Below are positions 1,620-27,135 of a DNA stretch of 27,135 nt, piece by piece. The first letter of the stretch is position 1. Each line of letters begins with the position of its first letter. The notes beneath the pieces were generated by a model, which was given only the letters and a program-made list of their open reading frames with translations, searched no databases and was not told the origin of the DNA. The position numbers were made by a program, and so were the translations under genes. Source of the DNA: a virus (Duplodnaviria; Heunggongvirae; Uroviricota; Caudoviricetes); IMG/VR virus record IMGVR_UViG_2529292920_000017, one strand, 5' to 3'.

Positions 1620-1928
1620 TTAGCCGGGCTGTGTGCCAGTCTTGCGGGGTTTTTGAGAAGGCGATGTGCTTTTTGGCCCATCAGGGGAGAGAGACGGACT
1701 GATCTGCCCAGCAGCCTCATTTGTTTTTCCCGTCATAAGCCAATTCATGTACTTAAAAAAGCGAGGGTGATTAACAATCTTGATAAGCACTTCGCCCCCT
1801 ATGTTTTCAATCCGCCCCGTTTCATAACGACGCAAAGTGCCGATAGGCACATCAATCAGGCCGCAAAATTCTTCGCGCGTTAAATCCTCTGATTCACGAA
1901 TCACTCTAATTTTTTCACCGATAAGCAT
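1620..1928 (-). CDS. C: immunity repressor, P2 C-type (short HTH repressor)
   Basis: ORF track 1620..1964 minus (GTG at 1964). Start reassigned to ATG at 1926-1928 giving about 102 aa: MLIGEKIRVIRESEDLTREEFCGLIDVPIGTLRRYETGR... This parallels the P2 C repressor (ISEKIVLMRKSEYLSRQQLADLTGVPYGTLSYYESGR, recalled from memory) in sequence and size. Divergent from the rightward early operon. Confidence 0.8.
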   Translation of the reverse strand: MLIGEKIRVIRESEDLTREEFCGLIDVPIGTLRRYETGRIENIGGEVLIKIVNHPRFFKYMNWLMTGKTNEAAGQISPSLSPDGPKSTSPSQKPRKTGTQPG

Positions 1929-2024
1929 TGACAGTGTTCCTATAAGTACACTAAGCTTGCGCACAAGGTGTACTTATAAGTACACCAGGTCACAAACAAC
2001 CACAGATAGCGCAGGTTATCACAC
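1929..2024. promoter_or_regulatory. divergent early promoter/operator region between C and the cox-like gene
   Basis: Perfect 18-bp palindrome GTGTACTTATAAGTACAC at 1968-1985 plus a half-site copy TATAAGTACAC at 1941-1951; TTGACA at 1928-1933. Sits between divergently transcribed repressor and early operon, the position of Pe/Pc and operators in P2. Confidence 0.6.
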
Positions 2025-2303
2025 ATGGCAAAAGTCCTGAACACACACGAACAGGCAGACTTTGAGCGTTTAGCAGCGTTCTATCCCTACCGCGATGAGC
2101 ATGGGTTACCAGTACTTGAAGAAAGCCTGAAAGATTACGCAAAGCGTACCAACCAAGCTGTTAACACAGTGAAAAGACAGGCTGACAGAGGTTCAATTCC
2201 CATCAACCAGGATGAAAAGAACTCAAGACGCACAGTAAATCTCTTCGCTCTTTTCCTGAAAACAATCAGGAGCGCAGAAAAATACGTGCAGATGACAAAA
2301 TAA
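2025..2303 (+). CDS. Cox/Apl-position small regulator (putative excisionase/transcriptional regulator)
   Basis: ATG at 2025, 92 aa, first gene of the rightward operon immediately opposite the repressor, same size class as P2 Cox. No sequence similarity to P2 Cox that I can confirm from memory; call is positional. Confidence 0.45.
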   Translation: MAKVLNTHEQADFERLAAFYPYRDEHGLPVLEESLKDYAKRTNQAVNTVKRQADRGSIPINQDEKNSRRTVNLFALFLKTIRSAEKYVQMTK

Positions 2304-2317
2304 CGAGGTGTCATTTT

Positions 2318-2656
2318 ATGCTGAAGCAACGCCGTAATTTTCGTACCGGAACAGAACGCCACGCTAACCGTTTCACTACCAGTGCATCACGCAGCAACAT
2401 CCGCTACAGCCTGAGTGATACACACGCAACGCCGGATGGCTACCCAGTAAAACAAATCGGCGAGCACGCCTGGCTGATTGAGAAAGCTGGAATCGTGATC
2501 CACAAATGCCCACGCAATCCGTTTACCGGAAACCGCATTTTTGCATTGAGCTGTGGCGACAATCAGTTCGGGCAGGATTTCACATTATACGAAGCACTTC
2601 GCACGGTTGATCGTCTGCTTCGCGGGCAAAGTTTTATTAAACAGGCTGATTTATAA
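2318..2656 (+). CDS. hypothetical early protein
   Basis: ATG at 2318 with GAGG about 10 nt upstream; 112-aa ORF in the rightward early operon. No recognised motif. Confidence 0.55.
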   Translation: MLKQRRNFRTGTERHANRFTTSASRSNIRYSLSDTHATPDGYPVKQIGEHAWLIEKAGIVIHKCPRNPFTGNRIFALSCGDNQFGQDFTLYEALRTVDRLLRGQSFIKQADL

Positions 2657-2666
2657 CGGGTGCTTT

Positions 2667-2954
2667 ATGACCAAAGACCATGCACAAGGTGTATTTATCC
2701 GTTTTATTGATTTTCGCGGTGAACTGTTATTACGTGCATCCGCTATTGACGGAGTGACTCCGGCGGGTAAAAACGGAGCCGACGAAGCCACTTACGTCTA
2801 TCTGAACGGCACGCGACTGCTTGTGGAACTTCCGTACCAGACCGTACGAGAAATCATTAGCGAAGCTGAAAAGGCACGCCAGGTTAATGGCGATGAACCC
2901 TATATCGAAATTATTTGTATGGATTCAGAAGCTGAAATACAGAAAGCAGATTAA
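2667..2954 (+). CDS. hypothetical early protein
   Basis: ORF track 2553..2954. The 5' part overlaps the previous gene in another frame, so start placed at internal ATG 2667 (MTKDHAQGVFIRF...). Weak RBS; start uncertain. Confidence 0.45.
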   Translation: MTKDHAQGVFIRFIDFRGELLLRASAIDGVTPAGKNGADEATYVYLNGTRLLVELPYQTVREIISEAEKARQVNGDEPYIEIICMDSEAEIQKAD

Positions 2955-2965
2955 AGGGTGTTGCA

Positions 2966-3208
2966 ATGGACAAAGAATATAAAACACTCATCAACAAAGC
3001 ACTTGAGCGTTTTTATTTTCGCTTAAGTGCATCAGGCGTTCATGCTGAACGTGCAGCCCGTGACTCATTGACCAGGGCAATCCGGAGTCTGTATGACGTG
3101 GCTTTTTACGCTGATGATCTGGATGCACTTAACGAACTTTCCGAGCTGATCTGTGCCGCAGAATGCGGAGAACATATTGAACCGTATAAGCTGGGGAATA
3201 TCGCATGA
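2966..3208 (+). CDS. hypothetical early protein
   Basis: ATG at 2966, 80-aa ORF, tightly packed after the previous gene. Confidence 0.55.
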   Translation: MDKEYKTLINKALERFYFRLSASGVHAERAARDSLTRAIRSLYDVAFYADDLDALNELSELICAAECGEHIEPYKLGNIA

Positions 3209-3318
3209 GTATATTTATCTCATGGCTTGTTCTGATTATTTCGGTGGCCTGCGCCATTGGGATTATGCGAATTATTAATTCAGTGAAAAAGATCGAGCGT
3301 TTTTTCTCTGATGAATAA
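3205..3318 (+). CDS. small hydrophobic peptide (37 aa), putative membrane peptide
   Basis: Translated by hand: MSIFISWLVLIISVACAIGIMRIINSVKKIERFFSDE. ATG at 3205 overlaps the stop of the upstream gene (ATGA). One predicted transmembrane helix followed by a charged tail. Below the ORF-track size cut-off. Confidence 0.35.
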   Translation: MSIFISWLVLIISVACAIGIMRIINSVKKIERFFSDE

Positions 3319-3411
3319 CGATACAAATAAAACATCAAATTAAATAAGAAAACGTGAAAACCATCCGTATTAACGGAGGTATTCGCACACGCAAATAACG
3401 GAGATACAAAA

Positions 3412-3822
3412 ATGCACGCAAAAGAAGAAGGTATCATCAGAGCACTGAAAGAAATTTCAAAGATGGAAAGCGAAGTAGCGAAAAAAGCCGTGGCCAATGC
3501 TCACATGGACGTCGCAACCCACACAATGATAGTCGCAAAAGTCACGGCAGAAGCTGCCAAAATCATCGAAGAACAGGGTGTGGAACTTGCGCTTCTCAAA
3601 ACTAAACCAGTCACCGGACTGGATTTATCTGACACCGGACGCCTTATTTACACTATTGGCTCGGAGCCACAGCGATACACCATTATCGCCGGATTACAGA
3701 ACAAATACCTGATCACTCCTCACCCCATAAGGGAATCAGCGCTTCTGACAAATCTCCGCCTGATAGAGCGCTCTCAAGTTGCATTCATTGATGACGCCCG
3801 ACACACCGTATTTAACGCATAG
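3412..3822 (+). CDS. hypothetical early protein
   Basis: ATG at 3412 with AACGGAG upstream; 136 aa. Preceded by an AT-rich intergenic region (3319-3411). Confidence 0.6.
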   Translation: MHAKEEGIIRALKEISKMESEVAKKAVANAHMDVATHTMIVAKVTAEAAKIIEEQGVELALLKTKPVTGLDLSDTGRLIYTIGSEPQRYTIIAGLQNKYLITPHPIRESALLTNLRLIERSQVAFIDDARHTVFNA

Positions 3823-3845
3823 GGTTACTGGACAAAGGGGGTGCA

Positions 3846-4049
3846 ATGGCAATTAAGCATTTTCCCGTCGTTCGCTTTACCTCCAGAGGGCGCGAATACG
3901 AGGTCGACGAACGCCTGATTACCACTATCGACAAACATCGTTCGGAAAAGGATGCACACCACATCTACCTCACTGACGGCACTTACTTCTGCGCCACCAA
4001 CGTGGCGCGGGTGAATCTTATCCGACAGGTACAGGAGCCACGCAGATGA
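3846..4049 (+). CDS. hypothetical early protein
   Basis: ATG at 3846 with AAAGGGGG upstream; 67 aa; its stop overlaps the next start. Confidence 0.55.
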   Translation: MAIKHFPVVRFTSRGREYEVDERLITTIDKHRSEKDAHHIYLTDGTYFCATNVARVNLIRQVQEPRR

Positions 4050-4312
4050 CCATTCTGGACTACATCGCTACTCATCCGGGTTGTAGCGGCGGAGAGATCG
4101 CCGCAGCACTGAATACTCCAACCACAGCCATTAATGCTGAGTTACGCCAACTTTGGCGCGGCGGCTTAGTCATCAGAACAAACCGCAGCACAGGTGGTCG
4201 CGCTCGCAAAACTGGAGGCCAGGCTTCTTACCACGTAAACCCGATGCCGTTCGGGTGTAGCAATCCACTTACTCACATGTTTAACCAGCTACTGAAGGAA
4301 GCCAGAACATGA
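4046..4312 (+). CDS. small DNA-binding protein candidate (winged-helix-like)
   Basis: ATG at 4046 with CAGGAG upstream; 88 aa. N-terminal MTILDYIATHPGCSGGEIAAALNTPTTAINAELRQLWRGGLVIR has the helix-turn-helix/wing pattern of small MarR/ArsR-like proteins. This is an inference from pattern only. Confidence 0.5.
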   Translation: MTILDYIATHPGCSGGEIAAALNTPTTAINAELRQLWRGGLVIRTNRSTGGRARKTGGQASYHVNPMPFGCSNPLTHMFNQLLKEART

Positions 4313-4569
4313 GCACCATCAACCACCAGAAGCTACGCGAACTGGCATTTGCCCTGCAACGAATGGCAACGCCTCAAAAATTACTGGCATTTCGCGCAAT
4401 GCTCTCGCCGTCTGCTGTGCTGGCACTGCTGGATGAGCTGGAGCACGCCAGAACCACGGCTCCTGCCATTCGCCTGACACTCCATCATGAAATCGCTGAT
4501 TTCTGCGCGACGTTGGAGGCACCCGGCGAACCGGAAACGCCGGAAGCAATACAGCAAGAGCTGCTGTAA
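4309..4569 (+). CDS. hypothetical early protein
   Basis: ATG at 4309 with AAGGAAG upstream; 86 aa; start overlaps the previous stop. Confidence 0.55.
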   Translation: MSTINHQKLRELAFALQRMATPQKLLAFRAMLSPSAVLALLDELEHARTTAPAIRLTLHHEIADFCATLEAPGEPETPEAIQQELL

Positions 4570-4694
4570 CGCATTGACAAGGTTTTTGATTTTTTCTGAA
4601 CCAGTAAGAAACCAGAACATGCACACACAAAAAAACCGCTTGCCATGCCGCAATCGGTCAGGTTACATTTCCGCTGCACCTCATAAAACGGGTG

Positions 4695-4922
4695 CCGGGA
4701 TTCTCAACCCGATACAGAGCAAAGCGCATAACCGCGCCAGCGGTTTTTTTGTGCGTACTGTATTGCCACGTCTTTTTCGCGTCAGAATTATGGCGGGGCG
4801 TACGGGGCCGACTTCGGTCGGGCCGGATTCTTTGCTCTCCGGTGTTGAGAACCCTGTACGTCTCGCCACCCCGAGATTCTCAACTCTGGATGGTGAGCTA
4901 TTTCTATCACCGAGCAAAGAGG
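4695..4922 (+). promoter_or_regulatory. structured non-coding leader/RNA candidate with repeated bipartite motif
   Basis: Three copies of the pair TTCTCAAC...GAGCAAAG: direct at 4701-4708/4717-4724, inverted at 4830-4837 (CTTTGCTC) and 4844-4851 (GTTGAGAA), direct at 4877-4884/4912-4919. A UUCG-tetraloop hairpin lies at 4805-4824 and a terminator hairpin at 4730-4750. The third GAGCAAAG overlaps the RBS (AAGAGG 4917-4922) of the ORF starting at 4930. Confidence 0.5.
4730..4750 (+). terminator. Rho-independent terminator candidate
   Basis: AACCGC-GCCA-GCGGTT stem-loop followed by seven T residues (4744-4750), in a non-coding stretch after the 4309..4569 gene. Confidence 0.6.
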
Positions 4923-8523: not shown

Positions 8524-9483
8524 ATGAAAATTTGTATCGATGACGGCTCCACCAACATCAAGCTGGCATGGACTGAGAACGGCGAACGCCGCAACGCCAT
8601 CAGCCCGAACAGCTTCAAGTCGGAATGGTCTGCGCCGTTCGGTGGCACGCAGCCCGCGAACTACATGCTTGATGGCGTGCGCTATGGTTTTGATCCGGTC
8701 AGCGATCGCTTTGTCCAGACGACCGACACGCAATACCAGTACAGCGATGTGAATGTCATTGCCATTCATCACGCGCTGGTCAAATCAGGCATCACACCAC
8801 AGGAGGTGGATGTGGTTGTCACCCTGCCACTGAGCGAATATTTCGACACAAACGCACAGCCGGACATGGCCAACATCAACCGCAAAAAAGCAAACGTCAT
8901 GCGCCCGGTGGCGTACCAGAACGGAAAAGCATTCACTATCCGTAACGTACGGGTTATGCCTGAATCCATTCCGGCTGGTTTTAAAGCACTGGCTGACATG
9001 AGTCCGTTTGAATCCCTGCTGATTGTGGATTTAGGCGGAACCACGCTGGATGTGGCAAAGGTTCAGGGACAACTGGCAGGTATCAGCCAGGTGTTTTGCG
9101 ATCCACACGTAGGCGTTTCCCTGATGGCCGATGCCGTACTGTCGGTGATGGCCACTAACGGTATGCGTACCAGTCACCACATCGCCAATACCATTATCGA
9201 ACATCGCCATGATGAAGCCTGGCTGCGCCAGCACATCCACAATGACGCGCATTACGCCAGCCTGATGGCGGTTATTCGTGAAAAGGAAGAAACACTGAAA
9301 CAACGCGTGATCCGCGCGCTGGCGGGTTTTTCGGGTTACGGGCGGGTGATGGTTGTCGGTGGCGGGGCGGAGATTGTGGCACCCGCTATCCGCGAAGCCT
9401 GCGGAGTTAATGCGACTTTCATCGCGGACGGGGTGCCACAGTTTGCTCTGGTTAATGGGCTGTACGCAATGGACAAGGAGTAA
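8524..9483 (+). CDS. parM: actin-like segregation ATPase ParM/StbA
   Basis: ATG at 8524 with AAGGAAAAG upstream; 319 aa. N-terminus MKICIDDGSTNIKLAW and internal LLIVDLGGTTLDVA are the actin-fold phosphate-1 and phosphate-2 motifs. From memory the protein aligns along its length with plasmid R1 ParM (MLVFIDDGSTNIKLQW..., ...VMPESIPAG..., ...GGGAE...). Confidence 0.85.
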   Translation: MKICIDDGSTNIKLAWTENGERRNAISPNSFKSEWSAPFGGTQPANYMLDGVRYGFDPVSDRFVQTTDTQYQYSDVNVIAIHHALVKSGITPQEVDVVVTLPLSEYFDTNAQPDMANINRKKANVMRPVAYQNGKAFTIRNVRVMPESIPAGFKALADMSPFESLLIVDLGGTTLDVAKVQGQLAGISQVFCDPHVGVSLMADAVLSVMATNGMRTSHHIANTIIEHRHDEAWLRQHIHNDAHYASLMAVIREKEETLKQRVIRALAGFSGYGRVMVVGGGAEIVAPAIREACGVNATFIADGVPQFALVNGLYAMDKE

Positions 9484-9487
9484 ACCA

Positions 9488-9799
9488 ATGACGACACCAA
9501 CCAGACGAATAAGTTTCTATCTGAAGCCCGCCGCCGTCAAGAACGAAGGCGAAGCATGCGCCTGGCTGGACAGCCTTACACCAGAAGCCCGCAAAAGCGG
9601 CCAACGTGTGGCTTTTCTGGCCGGGCTGGCACTTCTGAAAATGAATCCGGCAGAGGCTTACCGACTGGCTGCATGGGCTGATGATGAAGCGTTATCAGTG
9701 ACACAAACCAGGACAGAACGCCCCGCATCACAGCCAGTATCAACCGCACAGATAACCAGTCAGATGGCCGGAAATATCCGGGCGTTATTTCCCGAATAA
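9488..9799 (+). CDS. parR: ParR-like centromere-binding protein (ribbon-helix-helix)
   Basis: ORF track 9353..9799; start placed at ATG 9488, 5 nt after the parM stop. 103 aa. RRISFYLKP, LDSLTPEARKSGQRVAFLAGLALL and the C-terminal NIRALFPE parallel R1 ParR (RRTIAFKLNP, LDSIPQGERSRLNRAALTAGLALY, NILRSLFPKE) as recalled from memory. Confidence 0.7.
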   Translation: MTTPTRRISFYLKPAAVKNEGEACAWLDSLTPEARKSGQRVAFLAGLALLKMNPAEAYRLAAWADDEALSVTQTRTERPASQPVSTAQITSQMAGNIRALFPE

Positions 9800-10772: not shown

Positions 10773-11083
10773 CGCGTTTCAGGGGGTAAATAGCATCCCC
10801 TGAACGATGTCGCAGCAACACAACAGAATGGCTGTATTTCTCACGCTGAGTGTGAAAAAGACGTGAGGGATTCTGATTTGATGGGGTGAAAGGTAAGGCC
10901 GTCAAAATCGCACTGAGGCGTCGAAGAACATGCAGTCAACGCGGTGGGATTGCGTAAGAGTCTGACCGTCGATGATGGCAATAAGCAGGAAAGCGTCGTG
11001 AAATTATCTGACTGATACAGGAGCTGGAGAGTCGGGGCATAAATTTTTTATGCCCCGGCGAAGCAGCAGACAAGCGAAGCGCG

Positions 11084-16794: not shown

Positions 16795-16897
16795 CGACTG
16801 ACCCCGTCAGCGGGCGGCGTGCGCGGTGTTCCGGTTTGACTCCGTGACCGTTTACACCGCGCACCCACCGCCCGATTTTTTTTCAGGAGTGAACCCC

Positions 16898-21769: not shown

Positions 21770-22370
21770 TTCGTTGTTACCACCATCAGCCAGCAATTTC
21801 ATGCGTTGTGCCGAAGCCGTCGGAACACGCATTACAGACATTCCGGTAGACCTCAACACGCTGTGGTCGCCGGACACCTGCCCGGTGCATCTGCTGCCTT
21901 ATCTCGCCTGGGCGTTTTCCGTTGACCGCTGGGATCGCAACTGGCCGGAAGAGACAAAGCGACAGGTGATTCGTGATGCATGGCTGATACACCGACACAA
22001 AGGGACCATCAGCGCACTGCGAAGAGCCGTGGAGCCTCTCGGCTACCTGATTGAAGTAAAGGAGTGGTGGCAACTCAACGAGGAGCCAGGAACATTTCGC
22101 ATTGTTGTCGGAGTACTTGATCAGGGCATCACCGATGAAATGTATCAGGAACTTGAGCGCCTTATTGCGGATGCAAAACCAGTAAGTCGCCATCTGACGG
22201 GGCTGGCGATCAGCCTGAGTGTGAACGGAAAGATTTTCGTTGGTACGGGATGCTATCACGGCGATGCCCTGACGGTTTATCCCTACACCCCGGAGTCCAT
22301 TATTGTCGAAGGGGATTATTTCCCTGCCCCGGCCATTCATTTAATTGATAATCTGAGAGTAAACGCATGA
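21762..22370 (+). CDS. I: baseplate protein I
   Basis: ORF track 21729..22370; ATG at 21762 overlaps the J stop. LWSPDTCPVHLLPYLAWAFSVDRWD...ERLIADAKPVSRHL matches P2 I as recalled. Confidence 0.85.
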   Translation: MSNSLLPPSASNFMRCAEAVGTRITDIPVDLNTLWSPDTCPVHLLPYLAWAFSVDRWDRNWPEETKRQVIRDAWLIHRHKGTISALRRAVEPLGYLIEVKEWWQLNEEPGTFRIVVGVLDQGITDEMYQELERLIADAKPVSRHLTGLAISLSVNGKIFVGTGCYHGDALTVYPYTPESIIVEGDYFPAPAIHLIDNLRVNA

Positions 22371-23971
22371 CAGTGAAATACTACGCCATTCTGACTAATC
22401 AGGGCGCGGCACGACTGGCTAACGCGACGATGCTCGGCAGTAAGCTGAATCTGACGCAAATGGCCGTTGGTGATGCAAATGGTGTGTTACCAACACCAGA
22501 CCCTGCACAAACAAAACTGATTAACCAGAAACGCATTGCACCGCTGAATCTTCTGAGTGTTGACCCTAACAATCAGAGCCAGATTATTGCGGAGCAAATC
22601 ATCCCTGAAAACGAGGGAGGATTCTGGATCCGTGAGATTGGTCTTTATGATGATGAAGGTGTACTCATTGCGGTGGCAAACTGCCCGGAAACGTACAAAC
22701 CGCAGTTGCAGGAAGGCAGTGGACGCACCCAGACTATCCGCATGATTCTGGTTGTCACGAACACCGAAGCCATCACGCTGAAAATCGACCCGTCTGTGGT
22801 TCTGGCAACCCGCAAATATGTGGATGATAAAATCTCAGAGCACGAACAGTCACGACGTCACCCGGACGCCTCGCTGACCGTAAAAGGTTTTACTCAGTTA
22901 AGCAGTGCAATTAACAGTGAATCAGAAACACTGGCCGCAACACCGAAAGCGGTTAAGGCTGCATATGACCTGGCTAACGGGAAATATACCGCCCAGAACG
23001 CCACCACTACACAAAAAGGAATTGTTCAGCTCAGTAGCGCCACGAACAGCACGTCTGAAACGCTGGCAGCGACACCAAAATCTGTTAAGGCGGTAATGGA
23101 TGAAACGAACAAGAAAGCACCATTAAACAGCCCGGCACTGACCGGAACGCCAACAACACCAACAGCGCCACAGGGGACTAATAGTACCCAGATCGCAAGC
23201 ACGGCTTTCGTTATGGCCGCGATTGCCGCACTTGTAGATTCGTCACCTGATGCACTGAACACGCTGAACGAACTGGCTGCGGCGCTGGGCAATGACCCGA
23301 ATTTTGCGACCACCATGACTAACGCGCTTGCGGGTAAGCAACCGAAGGATGCCACCCTGACGGCGCTGGCAGAGCTTGCTACATCAGCAGATAAACTCCC
23401 ATATTTTACAGGGGCAGATCGTGCCGCGTTAACCGCGTTGACAAGTGTTGGACGTGCCATTCTTGGTAAAACCAGCACTCAGGGAGTTCTTGATTACCTT
23501 GGTTTGGGGGAAGGCTCTGCGCTGCCCGTTGGTGTGCCCGTTCCATGGCCCTCAGCCACGCTGCCAACGGGGTGGCTGAAATGTAACGGCGCAGCATTTT
23601 CTTCTGAAATGTACCCCAATCTGGCAAAGGCCTACCCCACCAATAAATTACCGGATTTACGGGGCGAATTTATTCGCGGCTGGGATGACGGACGGGGCGT
23701 TGATAATGGGCGCAACCTACTGTCTGCACAGTCTGACGCTATTCAGAATATAGTTGGCACTTTTGGGCGTACTCAGCTTTTTAAAGATGCGCTTAATTCA
23801 GGACCATTTAGTCAAACTGACTCTATATTATCAGTAGGCTTACAACCAACTGAGATCATTGAAGGATATGGTGCTTCTGTATGGACATTCGACGCCTCTC
23901 GCTCAGTTCGCACAGCATCTGAAACACGCCCCCATAACATTGCGTTTAATTACATCGTAAGGGCAGCATGA
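22367..23971 (+). CDS. H: tail fiber protein H: constant N-terminal part fused to the currently expressed C-terminal cassette (Hv1)
   Basis: ATG at 22367 overlapping the I stop; 534 aa. N-terminus MTVKYYAILTNQGAARLANA is the conserved P2-type fiber N-terminus. Internal tandem roughly 30-aa repeats (LSSAINSESETLAATPKAVKAA / LSSATNSTSETLAATPKSVKAV). From about 23500 the sequence (GLGEGSALPVGVPVPWPSAT...ETRPHNIAFNYIVRAA) belongs to the cassette family repeated downstream. Confidence 0.9.
   Translation: MTVKYYAILTNQGAARLANATMLGSKLNLTQMAVGDANGVLPTPDPAQTKLINQKRIAPLNLLSVDPNNQSQIIAEQIIPENEGGFWIREIGLYDDEGVLIAVANCPETYKPQLQEGSGRTQTIRMILVVTNTEAITLKIDPSVVLATRKYVDDKISEHEQSRRHPDASLTVKGFTQLSSAINSESETLAATPKAVKAAYDLANGKYTAQNATTTQKGIVQLSSATNSTSETLAATPKSVKAVMDETNKKAPLNSPALTGTPTTPTAPQGTNSTQIASTAFVMAAIAALVDSSPDALNTLNELAAALGNDPNFATTMTNALAGKQPKDATLTALAELATSADKLPYFTGADRAALTALTSVGRAILGKTSTQGVLDYLGLGEGSALPVGVPVPWPSATLPTGWLKCNGAAFSSEMYPNLAKAYPTNKLPDLRGEFIRGWDDGRGVDNGRNLLSAQSDAIQNIVGTFGRTQLFKDALNSGPFSQTDSILSVGLQPTEIIEGYGASVWTFDASRSVRTASETRPHNIAFNYIVRAA
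23487..23512 (+). other. candidate recombination site A (inside H, constant/variable boundary)
   Basis: TTCTTGATTACC-TT-GGTTTGGGGGAA. The right half and central TT are identical to the downstream cassette junctions; the left half is unique H sequence. Confidence 0.5.
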
Positions 23972-23990
23972 AAACGTTGGTTTGGGGGAA
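23965..23990 (+). other. candidate recombination site B (cassette junction)
   Basis: AGCATGAAAACG-TT-GGTTTGGGGGAA. The left half contains the stop codon of the preceding cassette (GCA TGA); the right half encodes the start of the next cassette (LGEG). Confidence 0.55.
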
Positions 23991-24515
23991 GGCTCTGCAC
24001 TGCCCGTTGGTGTACCTGTTCCGTGGCCCTCAGCCACTCCACCAACGGGCTGGCTGAAATGCAACGGCGCAGCATTTTCTTCTGAAGATTACCCCAAATT
24101 GGCACAGGCTTACCCCGCGAACAAATTACCGGATCTACGGGGTGAATTTATCCGTGGCTGGGATGATGGACGTGGCTTGGATGCTGGGCGTGCCTTGCTA
24201 AGTCTTCAGGATGACTCTTTTGAAGCGCACAGGCATGAGTCCTTTTTTTATGCGGGTATTTCACGTAATGAGACCCCATTAAAAAATCTTCCAAGTTCAG
24301 ACGAGATGCTGACTTTAAGTTCCACAACTAATGCCTTGTCCCCGGACAGTATTGATGCCACCAACTCGTTAATTGGTAATGACGATTACAACTGTCTTAT
24401 CGAAGGGAATAAAAATAACAAACGAACAGCGACAGGACTGAGTACCAGTATTGTCGGCACAGCAGAAACACGCCCCCGCAACGTTGCATTCAATTACATC
24501 GTAAGAGCTGCATGA
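23979..24515 (+). CDS. silent tail-fiber C-terminal cassette Hv2 (promoterless; no ATG)
   Basis: ORF track 23982..24515 starts at TTG. Shares the N-terminal roughly 65 aa (GEGSALPVGVPVPWPSATPPTGWLKCNGAAFSSE.YP.LA.AYP.NKLPDLRGEFIRGWDDGRG) and C-terminal ETRPRNVAFNYIVRAA with the H C-terminus; the middle is unique. Protein identical to the minus-strand cassette at 26602..27135. Confidence 0.7.
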   Translation, partial: GLGEGSALPVGVPVPWPSATPPTGWLKCNGAAFSSEDYPKLAQAYPANKLPDLRGEFIRGWDDGRGLDAGRALLSLQDDSFEAHRHESFFYAGISRNETPLKNLPSSDEMLTLSSTTNALSPDSIDATNSLIGNDDYNCLIEGNKNNKRTATGLSTSIVGTAETRPRNVAFNYIVRAA

Positions 24516-24534
24516 AAACGTTGGTTTAGGGGAA
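24509..24534 (+). other. candidate recombination site C (cassette junction)
   Basis: TGCATGAAAACG-TT-GGTTTAGGGGAA; same architecture as site B. Confidence 0.55.
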
Positions 24535-25001
24535 GGCTCTGCACTGCCCGTTGGTGTGCCCGTTCCGTGGCCCTTAGCAACACCACCAACGGGCTGGCTG
24601 AAATGTAACGGTGCAGCATTTTCTTCTGAAATGTACCCCAATCTGGCAAAAGCCTACCCCACCAATAAATTACCGGATTTACGGGGCGAATTTATTCGTG
24701 GCTGGGATGATGGGCGAGGAATTGATGCAGCACGCGCTTTATTGAGCATTCAAACCGGGATGTTGGAAAAACACCGCCATATTGTTGTAGCTAACGATGG
24801 ATATGACACAAAGGATGAATGGGAGTTGGCCACGATTTTCAAAAAACATATACACAAGGCAGGGGGCTTGATGCCACAAATACAGGAGGGAGTTTGATTC
24901 CATCACCAACGCTTCATTCACGAGGAAGTATTGGTAACACAGGTGGTAGTGAAACCCGCCCCCGCAATATTGCATTTAACTATATCGTGAGGGCGGCTTA
25001 G
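24523..25001 (+). pseudogene. tail-fiber C-terminal cassette Hv3, frameshifted
   Basis: The conserved cassette N-terminus (ORF 24556..24897) and the conserved C-terminus ETRPRNIAFNYIVRAA (ORF 24819..25001) are in different frames. The frame changes in the region of an A6 tract at 24841-24846; adding one A would join them into one cassette-length ORF. Confidence 0.6.
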
Positions 25002-25007
25002 TTATAT

Positions 25008-25619
25008 TCAACTGGCTGCTGCCAGTGGTATTTCCGGCAAGTTGATATCTGGTGCCATGTTTATATCCATTGCGTTCAGCGCGTCTATATAATCCAGCAC
25101 GGCGTTAAGCCGGGTGGTTTCTGCCTGCGTCAACTTCCGCCCGGCCTGCAACTTCAACTGAATCAGACTTATGGAAGCCATTGCCGCATCAGCCAGTGAC
25201 TGGCGCTTGGTTTCTGCCGCTTCTACTGCGGCACTATGTTGTGCCTCAGTATCTGTCACCCATTTTTCACCATCCCATTTATCGTATGGTGTCGACGGGG
25301 AGATAGTGGTTGTATTTTTCGGGTAGTCACCTAGCGTCGTGATTTCTTCGGTGTTTCCCGTGTCAGTGTTATAGACGGTTTCACCACGATGATCTGGCGT
25401 ATACTCCCATGAATTTAAATTCTCCGAACGGCGGATAGCATAGCCCGCTTTATGTGCGCCCGGGGCATCTAAACAGGAATTTGCCGGAATACCGACACCC
25501 GCAGCAAGATATTCAGTTGATTCGGAAATATATTCCCGTGTCTCACCATCATAGTTATAAACGACGATGTTTCCTGCCTGTACGGCAATAAGGTCATCAT
25601 TTAATATCGCGTTATTCAT
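25008..25619 (-). CDS. tail fiber assembly protein (Tfa, P2 gpG functional analogue)
   Basis: 203 aa, ATG at 25617-25619 overlapping the stop of cassette Hv4 (TAATG). C-terminal region KRQSLADAAMASISLIQLKLQAGRKLTQAETTRLNAVLDYIDAL is the conserved Tfa chaperone domain pattern. Encoded on the strand opposite to H. Confidence 0.8.
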   Translation of the reverse strand: MNNAILNDDLIAVQAGNIVVYNYDGETREYISESTEYLAAGVGIPANSCLDAPGAHKAGYAIRRSENLNSWEYTPDHRGETVYNTDTGNTEEITTLGDYPKNTTTISPSTPYDKWDGEKWVTDTEAQHSAAVEAAETKRQSLADAAMASISLIQLKLQAGRKLTQAETTRLNAVLDYIDALNAMDINMAPDINLPEIPLAAAS

Positions 25620-26080
25620 TATGCGGTTCTCACAATATAATTGAAGGCAATATTGCGTGGGCGGGTTTCATTCCCCTCTGAGGATTCCGTTCTGTATTGA
25701 CTGGTAAATCTACCGTTAATTGCACCTTGCCGGACGGCGTTATCTGTCGACAACAGACTATCCCCGCCTTTGTCATTTGGCACCAGTACCGTGTTATCCC
25801 ACGCATCCCATGACCGAATATTATGATAATGACTTCCTGTTAACCACCCCTGCATGCTTAAGATGACCCTTCCGGCATCCACCCCGCGCCCATCATCCCA
25901 GCCACGGATAAATTCACCGCGTAAGTCTGGTAATTTATTGGTGGGGTAAGCCATTGCCAGTCTGGGATACATTTCAGAAGAAAATGCTGCGCCGTTACAT
26001 TTCAGCCACCCCGTTGGCGGCGTGGCTGAGGGCCATGGAACAGGTACACCAACGGGCAGTGCAGAGCCTTCTCCTAAACC
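25619..26080 (-). CDS. silent tail-fiber C-terminal cassette Hv4 (minus strand, directly upstream of tfa)
   Basis: ORF track 25619..25972 begins at an internal ATG, but the same frame stays open back to site D and encodes the conserved cassette N-terminus (GEGSALPVGVPVPWPSATPPTGWLKCNGAAFSSEMYP...). Ends ETRPRNIAFNYIVRTA; unique middle. Confidence 0.65.
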   Translation of the reverse strand, partial: GLGEGSALPVGVPVPWPSATPPTGWLKCNGAAFSSEMYPRLAMAYPTNKLPDLRGEFIRGWDDGRGVDAGRVILSMQGWLTGSHYHNIRSWDAWDNTVLVPNDKGGDSLLSTDNAVRQGAINGRFTSQYRTESSEGNETRPRNIAFNYIVRTA

Positions 26081-26094
26081 AACGTTTTCATGCG
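26069..26094 (-). other. candidate recombination site D (inverted orientation)
   Basis: Plus strand reads TTCTCCTAAACC-AA-CGTTTTCATGCG, the reverse complement of the site B/C pattern. Confidence 0.55.
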
Positions 26095-26594
26095 GCTCTT
26101 ACGATGTAATTAAATGCAACGTTGCGAGGGCGAGTTTCTGTACCTACATTTCCACTAATTTCACCAAACCGTTTTACATTACGAGAGCTAATGGCTCGTA
26201 GTGAGGAAGGCACATTTAAACCGGGTTCGTCTGTTTTAACTATTCCCCCGTCCCCGTATGTAGCCAGTATTCCAGGGTTTACTCCTTCCCGTGTACTTCC
26301 CGCGGCAAGTCCATCCCCGGTCCATAATTCCATATAGTGTGCATGATCCAAAATTGTGTGTGGCTGCCAATTAAGCAGAGCGCGGCCAGCATCCACCCCG
26401 CGCCCATCATCCCAGCCGCGAATAAATTCGCCCCGTAAATCCGGTAATTTATTGGCGGGGTAGGCCTTTGCCAGATTGGGGTACATTTCAGAAGAAAATG
26501 CTGCACCGTTACATTTCAGCCAGCCCGTTGGCGGCGTGGCTGAAGGCCATGGAACGGGCACACCAACGGGCAGCGCCGAGCCTTCCCCTAAACC
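26088..26594 (-). CDS. silent tail-fiber C-terminal cassette Hv5 (minus strand)
   Basis: ORF track 26088..26561. Conserved cassette N- and C-termini (…ETRPRNVAFNYIVRAA) with a unique middle (LLNWQPHTILDHAHYMELWTGDG...). Confidence 0.65.
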   Translation of the reverse strand, partial: GLGEGSALPVGVPVPWPSATPPTGWLKCNGAAFSSEMYPNLAKAYPANKLPDLRGEFIRGWDDGRGVDAGRALLNWQPHTILDHAHYMELWTGDGLAAGSTREGVNPGILATYGDGGIVKTDEPGLNVPSSLRAISSRNVKRFGEISGNVGTETRPRNVAFNYIVRAA

Positions 26595-26608
26595 AACGTT
26601 TTCATGCA
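26583..26608 (-). other. candidate recombination site E (inverted orientation)
   Basis: Plus strand reads TTCCCCTAAACC-AA-CGTTTTCATGCA. Confidence 0.55.
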
Positions 26609-27135
26609 GCTCTTACGATGTAATTGAATGCAACGTTGCGGGGGCGTGTTTCTGCTGTGCCGACAATACTGGTACTCAGTCCTGTCGCTGTTCGTTTGTT
26701 ATTTTTATTCCCTTCGATAAGACAGTTGTAATCGTCATTACCAATTAACGAGTTGGTGGCATCAATACTGTCCGGGGACAAGGCATTAGTTGTGGAACTT
26801 AAAGTCAGCATCTCGTCTGAACTTGGAAGATTTTTTAATGGGGTCTCATTACGTGAAATACCCGCATAAAAAAAGGACTCATGCCTGTGCGCTTCAAAAG
26901 AGTCATCCTGAAGACTTAGCAAGGCACGCCCAGCATCCAAGCCACGTCCATCATCCCAGCCACGGATAAATTCACCCCGTAGATCCGGTAATTTGTTCGC
27001 GGGGTAAGCCTGTGCCAATTTGGGGTAATCTTCAGAAGAAAATGCTGCGCCGTTGCATTTCAGCCAGCCCGTTGGTGGAGTGGCTGAGGGCCACGGAACA
27101 GGTACACCAACGGGCAGTGCAGAGCCTTCCCCCAA
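26602..27135 (-). CDS. silent tail-fiber C-terminal cassette Hv6 (minus strand), reaches the window edge
   Basis: ORF track 26602..27135. The translated protein is identical to cassette Hv2 (23982..24515), so the two form a long inverted duplication. The window ends inside the next junction site (TTCCCCCAA at 27127-27135). Confidence 0.65.
   Translation of the reverse strand: MGEGSALPVGVPVPWPSATPPTGWLKCNGAAFSSEDYPKLAQAYPANKLPDLRGEFIRGWDDGRGLDAGRALLSLQDDSFEAHRHESFFYAGISRNETPLKNLPSSDEMLTLSSTTNALSPDSIDATNSLIGNDDYNCLIEGNKNNKRTATGLSTSIVGTAETRPRNVAFNYIVRAA

Follow-up and report, generated by a model that had tools for sequence, protein, structure and literature searches.

The frameshift in a silent tail-fibre cassette of a P2-family Escherichia coli prophage is a single homopolymer lesion or miscall and very probably not a genetic switch

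Introduction

When a silent tail-fibre cassette is split by a frameshift that falls in a run of adenines, is the run a genetic switch, the site of a mutation, or a flaw in the assembled sequence? Cassette Hv3, in the invertible tail-fibre region of the prophage described here, raises this question. The preliminary description of this DNA had offered two readings of the split, decay of a silent cassette or a slipped-strand, phase-variable tract that gates one receptor specificity. We address the question by setting out how the region is built, what exactly is broken in Hv3, how long the run is in homologous cassettes, and how trustworthy the calls of a shortened run are, here and elsewhere.

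The window, by which we mean the whole stretch of 27,135 nt that was analyzed, is the final 27,135 nt of draft contig AIEZ01000015.1 (GCA_000249135.2), which continues for 2 nt beyond it. The accession range of AIEZ01 corresponds to E. coli DECA collection drafts released in 2012 (PMC3558956). The window carries a P2-family prophage whose insertion point adjoins btuC and whose structural genes are all intact. Relatives covering at least 80% of the window are present in ~370 complete E. coli genomes with a best identity of ~98.6%, and neither exact look-ups of H, the integrase, J and tfa nor a BLAST search with 23.5 kb revealed a relative above that value.

Results and Discussion

The expressed tail-fibre gene H (22367..23971, + strand; Pfam Phage_tail_fib, Phage_fiber_2 and Collar) is composed of a constant part, extending up to about 23500 on the + strand, and the cassette now fused to it, Hv1 (23501-23971, +). 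The cassettes located after H are promoterless and C-terminal. Hv2 (23979..24515, +) is silent and intact, with 177 residues, and is followed by Hv3 (24523..25001, +), a silent alternative C-terminal cassette of H that we delimit from just past the crossover core to the stop codon. A tail-fibre assembly (chaperone) gene (25008..25619, −; Pfam Caudo_TAP) faces Hv3 tail to tail and runs in the same direction as the next cassette, Hv4 (25619..26080, −; frame read by hand), which is silent and intact and encodes a protein identical in the relatives L001 and L003 (L numbers designate the loci compared). Hv5 (26088..26594, −), of 157 residues as called, is likewise silent and intact, and the last cassette, Hv2' (26602..27135, −), repeats Hv2 exactly in inverted orientation; the contig stops 2 nt past the window, inside the next crossover site. 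Cassettes Hv2 to Hv5 share a LGEGSALPVGVPVPWP... start and an ...ETRPRN[IV]AFNYIVRAA end, and differ in their middles.

A scan of the whole window with the motif A[AC]C[CG]TTGGTTT[AG]GG[AG]GAAGG located copies at 23499, 23977 and 24521 on the + strand and at 26082 and 26596 on the − strand, together with a partial copy at the window end, and none in the rest of the window. These copies mark crossover sites within H (23487..23512, +; core TT 23499-23500 in ...TACC TT GGTTTGGGGGAAGG, with the junction also visible in the alignment with GF66.2), between the Hv1 stop codon and Hv2 (23965..23990, +), before Hv3 (24509..24534, +; core TT 24521-24522), before Hv4 (26069..26094, −, opposite in orientation to the three + sites) and before Hv5 (26583..26608, −). 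The sites presumably resemble gix, cix and hix. An exact 558-nt inverted duplicate (23982-24539 versus 26578-27135) includes the crossover sites on both of its sides, and just outside it identity falls to about 91%. The second copy of Hv2 is most likely the product of two inversion isomers merged in one contig rather than a true duplication.

The conserved sites, the cassettes, the recombinase encoded in relatives, and the varied orders and orientations in which the cassettes occur identify the locus as a host-range switch that works by multiple inversion, of the known Gin/Cin/Pin/Min kind. In every relative fetched, a recombinase gene with Resolvase and HTH_7 domains directly follows the last cassette (for example, L004 35014-35613; L008 10298-10897, PF00239 and PF02796); the corresponding point of our contig is beyond its end. 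The same cassettes are found in related genomes in other orders, orientations and fusions to H: here and in L004 the Hv3-type cassette lies silent on the + strand, in L005 and L007 it is inverted relative to H, and in L003, L200, L205 and L206 it is joined to the constant part of H. The serine invertase, encoded just past the window end in relatives, would recombine the 26-bp sites at the cassette 5' edges, and inversion would thereby attach to the constant part of H a single C-terminal receptor-binding tip out of about five alternatives. Judging from the orientations of the sites, Hv3 would become fused to H only after two inversions in succession. When the Hv3-type cassette is expressed, as in L003, L200, L205 and L206, the sole tail-fibre assembly gene in the invertible DNA lies on the opposite strand.

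In its layout the locus follows Min (plasmid p15B), Cin (P1), Gin (Mu) and Pin (e14), in which a constant N-terminal fibre gene precedes promoterless C-terminal cassettes. It also shares with Din-family systems the crossover sites of ~26 bp with a central TT/AA core, located at cassette 5' edges in both orientations, the tail-fibre assembly gene within the invertible DNA, and, as seen in relatives of the window, the Resolvase and HTH_7 recombinase gene beside the last cassette. Unlike the systems listed, the host element here is a P2-family prophage, at least five cassettes accompany one chaperone gene, and the recombinase lies outside the window. A P2-like prophage that Goldberg et al. (2014, PMC4272514) described in EPEC E2348/69 has a shufflon-like locus whose isomers coexist in clonal culture. 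As in the window, partly homologous inverted repeats there yield alternative C-termini of one tail-fibre protein; that locus has three repeats and four variants, as against six sites in the window, and no frameshift was reported in it (PMC4272514). We find that E2348/69 carries the Hv3 cassette type with a run of seven adenines (A7; 98.9% identity over 87 nt). The Hv3 type is used by P1-like plasmids as well, and in plasmid CP088419.1 the intact cassette is fused to the S-type fibre as the expressed end of a P1-type fibre.

Within Hv3, the frame changes at the A6 run 24841-24846, where the preliminary description had rightly put it. One open reading frame (24556-24897, frame 1) holds the conserved cassette N-terminus and ends at TGA 24895-24897, and a second (24819-25001, frame 3) holds the conserved C-terminus (...GGSETRPRNIAFNYIVRAA) and ends at TAG 24999-25001. 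Reliable homologues have A7 at the point of change, read in the codons AAA AAA A-CA (Lys-Lys-Thr). Upon alignment of Hv3 with three intact E. coli copies, the sole difference inside the variable part was one missing A, and Hv3 is otherwise base-for-base the same as the intact CH4793 copy. Addition of one A restores a continuous frame of 158 residues (LGEGS...NYIVRAA) that is identical to intact copies elsewhere, which bears out the earlier prediction that one inserted A would give a cassette-length frame. A G5 run, which had been placed at about 24870, does follow, although its true position is 24862-24866, and its length is the same as in relatives. No second lesion was found in Hv3 by alignment with the three intact copies; the multiple additional disruptions that simple pseudogenization would leave are absent, and the cassette contains only the one-base deletion. 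The break is a specific departure from orthologues by one base and no product of chance patterning; it is a single ordinary homopolymer lesion or miscall in a silent cassette, and very probably not a genetic switch.

The repaired Hv3 protein has a Pfam Collar domain at residues 10-57 and resembles the tip of T4 gp37 (PDB 2XGF) in its N-terminal collar part (E = 1.4e-16) and in the last strand, NIAFNYIVR. This is a likeness in sequence, and the middle, receptor-binding part of T4 gp37 is unrelated in sequence to Hv3. The 2XGF chain runs out to the tip and then returns. A product cut at the A run would lack both the tip and the returning strand, and a truncated Hv3 would therefore be a null allele.

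We then consider how the run varies among homologues, using A7 queries of 87 and 121 nt and an A6 query of 36 nt. The Hv3-type variable part is carried by 79 of 5,426 complete E. coli genomes, and is in frame in ~78 of them. With the A7 query, 59 of the 60 matches listed for complete E. coli genomes had no length difference, and the exception among them, 14EC047, has A7 but G4 in place of G5. All of the 21 loci fetched individually (L001-L010, L013 and L197-L206) have A7, as do all four metagenome contigs. A slightly different allele is found in 86 records of P1-like plasmids, the first 60 of which are 100% identical over 121 nt including A7. Among 68 viral contigs in IMG/VR, 41 have A7, 27 have AAAAAGA, and none has A6 or A8. 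The Hv3-type variable part is essentially limited to Escherichia (contig scan, with two informative loci added); matches in other genera either have at most 43% identity over the full query or are confined to the conserved C-terminal motif.

The A7 variants that the preliminary description had predicted thus exist, and A7 is in fact the normal state in relatives. Homologous cassettes in other genomes, which it had proposed to check, are intact even where they are fused to the constant part of H as its expressed end, in GF66.2, L200, L205 and L206. A6 was absent among roughly 190 reliable A7-bearing sequences, which sets the prior for a true A6 below about 1-2%. The AAAAAGA form contains a synonymous Lys codon, so that Lys-Lys is kept and the run is broken, and a copy of 87% identity in Escherichia sp. 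MOD1-EC7003 (L014) reads AGA AGA GCA (Arg-Arg-Ala). The existence of these two alleles suggests that selection keeps Lys-Lys or Arg-Arg at this point and not the run of adenines.

These distributions bear directly on the possibility that the A run has evolved as a slipped-strand contingency tract, toggling one receptor specificity on top of inversion. The frameshift lies exactly in the homopolymer and a single slip would restore the frame; two alleles, one chromosomal and one of P1-like plasmids, have an A6 call at this run; and a frameshift in a mononucleotide run of a surface-recognition gene is what the contingency loci of Neisseria, Haemophilus, Campylobacter and Helicobacter display. However, contingency mononucleotide tracts in those genera are usually at least 8 bases long, and the run considered here is only 7 bases long, being A7 in intact copies and A6 in the window. 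At contingency loci the tract is conserved while its length varies among close relatives, whereas the Hv3 run is invariant in length in the reliable assemblies (~78 complete genomes in frame, at least 60 plasmids with A7, 41 viral contigs with A7) and is not conserved as a tract, being broken by AAG in 27 of 68 viral contigs and replaced by AGA AGA GCA in the 87%-identical copy. Moreover, about two thirds of the cassette precedes the run, and every other A6 call comes from an error-laden assembly. In length, polymorphism and conservation alike the run falls short of a contingency tract, and the switching in this region is site-specific inversion; the phase-variable tract proposed at the outset is not supported, and we regard it as very improbable.

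A different programmed reading would have the A6 form decoded by recoding, either by a −1 ribosomal slip on C-AAA-AAA or by addition of an extra A by RNA polymerase. By inspection, a ribosome that slipped back one base on the two Lys codons would go on to read ACA UAU ACA..., which is the exact wild-type continuation. This match is outweighed by several observations: homologues are single open reading frames, so that the split frame is not conserved; the heptamer is imperfect, with C instead of A before the run; and no stable downstream RNA structure is predicted (z = +0.49). In addition, if the fibre is a homotrimer, as the analogy with T4 gp37 leads one to presume, a percent-level yield of full-length chains would give almost no complete trimers. 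Recoding is the least credible of the readings, and even pooled with the contingency tract it makes for a slim prospect. Hardly more credible than recoding is a mixed form of the two ideas, in which the Lys-Lys A run acts as a low-rate second switch in the shufflon through reversible slippage or percent-level −1 decoding; if it did, the availability of one receptor specificity would be tuned on top of the choice of cassette by inversion.

Apart from the window, four assemblies have an A6 call at this run, all with many one-base indels nearby. The 36-nt A6 query matched one further complete genome, EC291 (L097, NZ_AP027445.1), in which at least 20 further homopolymer deletions are found, all in the invertible region, with zero in both flanks. 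A protein search with the truncated product retrieved one small cluster with the same out-of-frame tail, made up of proteins from P1-like plasmids; the window's own truncated product, of 113 aa, occurs in this contig only, among 153 billion gene positions. Neighbouring genes are fragmented in CDDKER01 and CATKVD01, and a second copy in CATKVD01 is A5. CP088429.1 differs from its sister plasmid by ten further one-base indels within 2.8 kb. Every independent A6 is thus explained by a poor consensus at a place where reads of different isomers mix.

Several irregularities of a related kind were observed in these and other assemblies. In EC291 (1750-4750) and 14EC047 (L112, NZ_CP024155.1), one-base homopolymer deletions and PGAP "frameshifted" flags cluster within the invertible tail-fibre DNA, and the neighbouring I, J, recombinase and gpU genes are free of them; the tape-measure gene of 14EC047 is flagged as frameshifted too. 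This pattern looks like failed polishing of mixed-isomer DNA. In CP088429.1 (L099 and L101, 6400-8100) a cassette is present in both orientations and the tail-fibre assembly frame lacks its first ~50 codons, which we take as a sign of mis-assembly of the invertible region. In L002 (2014C-3075, NZ_CP027447.1; 2437-4030), H is annotated without a C-terminus and the crossover site before the Hv3-type cassette has lost one base (TTT-GGGG); the site is possibly damaged, or this is another consensus error.

With the programmed readings set aside, the A6 of the window is to be explained by an error or by a mutation. We incline to the first: A6 is probably a consensus error on an incidental A7 run (TTC AAA AAA ACA, Phe-Lys-Lys-Thr). 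The base would most likely have been lost when noisy reads became consensus, and the real prophage would carry an intact Hv3. The reads appear to be noisy at homopolymers and are probably 454 reads, and the region would be a mix of inversion isomers in any culture. Contemporaneous E. coli drafts from the same centre were produced with 454 Titanium sequencing and the Celera assembler (PMC3491183). That the exact inverted copy of Hv2 at the contig end is bounded by crossover sites suggests that the contig was built from more than one isomer.

An indication of the quality of the reads was obtained from the Logan assembly of SRR094159, which is identical to the contig over 13,388 nt except at one T7/T6 run (L195 2686 versus L196, in the ydiV-nlpC spacer), where the Logan assembly has T6 and the contig has T7, as do 13 further E. 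coli loci. Because two assemblies of the strain's reads disagree at a T7, there seems to be length noise at 7-base runs in these reads. Of the runs of at least 7 bases in the window, 3 of 11 differ from all relatives (T6 at 4590, T8 at 16876 and A6 at 24841), as compared with 0 of ~33 six-base runs. The supposed error resembles known homopolymer consensus errors of pyrosequencing and long-read assemblies in that it misses one base of the gene's longest run (the A7 of the Hv3 cassette type), and the same run is miscalled in EC291, CDDKER01, CATKVD01 and CP088429.1. Some observations count against an artefact. The T6 at 4590 is found in both assemblies of the strain, and the 3.6-kb invertible region has no other indel, so that, unlike those error-laden assemblies, the window would have a single error, if it is one, alone in the region.

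We also considered whether an excess of homopolymer changes could serve as proof of error, and rejected this line of argument. The window contains about 5 strain-unique indel events to about 104 strain-unique substitutions, a ratio that is not clearly abnormal, and one of the runs is naturally polymorphic. The latter is the T run 16876-16883, in the non-coding spacer between the terminase small-subunit and head-completion genes, which is T8 here; most relatives have T7, whereas T6 occurs in L120 and L123. The run truly varies, or is often miscalled.

The competing explanation is a genuine, recent and spontaneous slippage from A7 to A6 that made silent Hv3 a null allele, and it is a serious possibility, if a less probable one. 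A slippage hotspot is expected at A7, the longest run in the cassette. The other genes and cassettes of the window are clean, so that the assembly is not generally error-ridden, and the number of unique indels, set against that of unique substitutions, looks natural. A real nonsense allele is found in the same prophage, in a small accessory gene of 99 codons (4309-4608) with TAA at 4567-4569, and is common to the unrelated prophage L194. PGAP also flags frameshifted cassettes elsewhere, for example in EC43. A null Hv3 would persist because the cassette is rarely exposed to selection. Against these points stand the homopolymer noise evident in the reads of the strain, the absence of A6 from roughly 190 reliable sequences, and the absence of a second lesion, by which the mutation would have to be very recent. 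The decay of a silent cassette originally suggested would therefore hold only in the form of one very recent lesion, since no other disruption accompanies it. If the mutation is real, a fibre fused to Hv3 would have neither its distal tip nor its C-terminal strand, which would leave the virions of that isomer defective.

Consensus errors in pyrosequencing occur, as a rough figure, at a few percent per run. Weighing this rate against the low prior for a true A6 (under about 1-2%) is what leads us to rate a miscall as slightly more probable than not and a true mutation as a substantial but lesser possibility. Sequencing error at the homopolymer, which the preliminary description had named as the finding that would overturn its proposals, is accordingly the reading that we now favour, as an inference from the comparisons above.

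The frameshift carries little biological weight: host-range switches of this kind are known, and the break amounts to one lesion or miscall that is not programmed. The lesson is one for annotation. Any culture holds invertible tail-fibre regions as a mixture of isomers, and assemblies of these regions gather chimeric arrangements as well as errors at homopolymers. A cassette annotated there as "frameshifted" is to be taken for a pseudogene or a phase-variable gene only after the reads have been checked.

Lastly, the prophage has several features of its own outside the invertible region. Partition genes of the ParM/StbA-like and StbB-like kinds are located at 8524-9799, between replication gene A and the portal gene, and are an unusual cargo for an integrated P2-family phage. 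Changes unique to the strain lie at 4309-4608, 7733, 10180 and 10924. Besides the nonsense codon described above, they comprise the change from T7 to T6 at 4590, the loss of 12 nt from replication gene A with the frame kept, a change from G3 to G2 by which the four final codons of a ClpX-type zinc-finger gene are altered, and an extra A at 10924.
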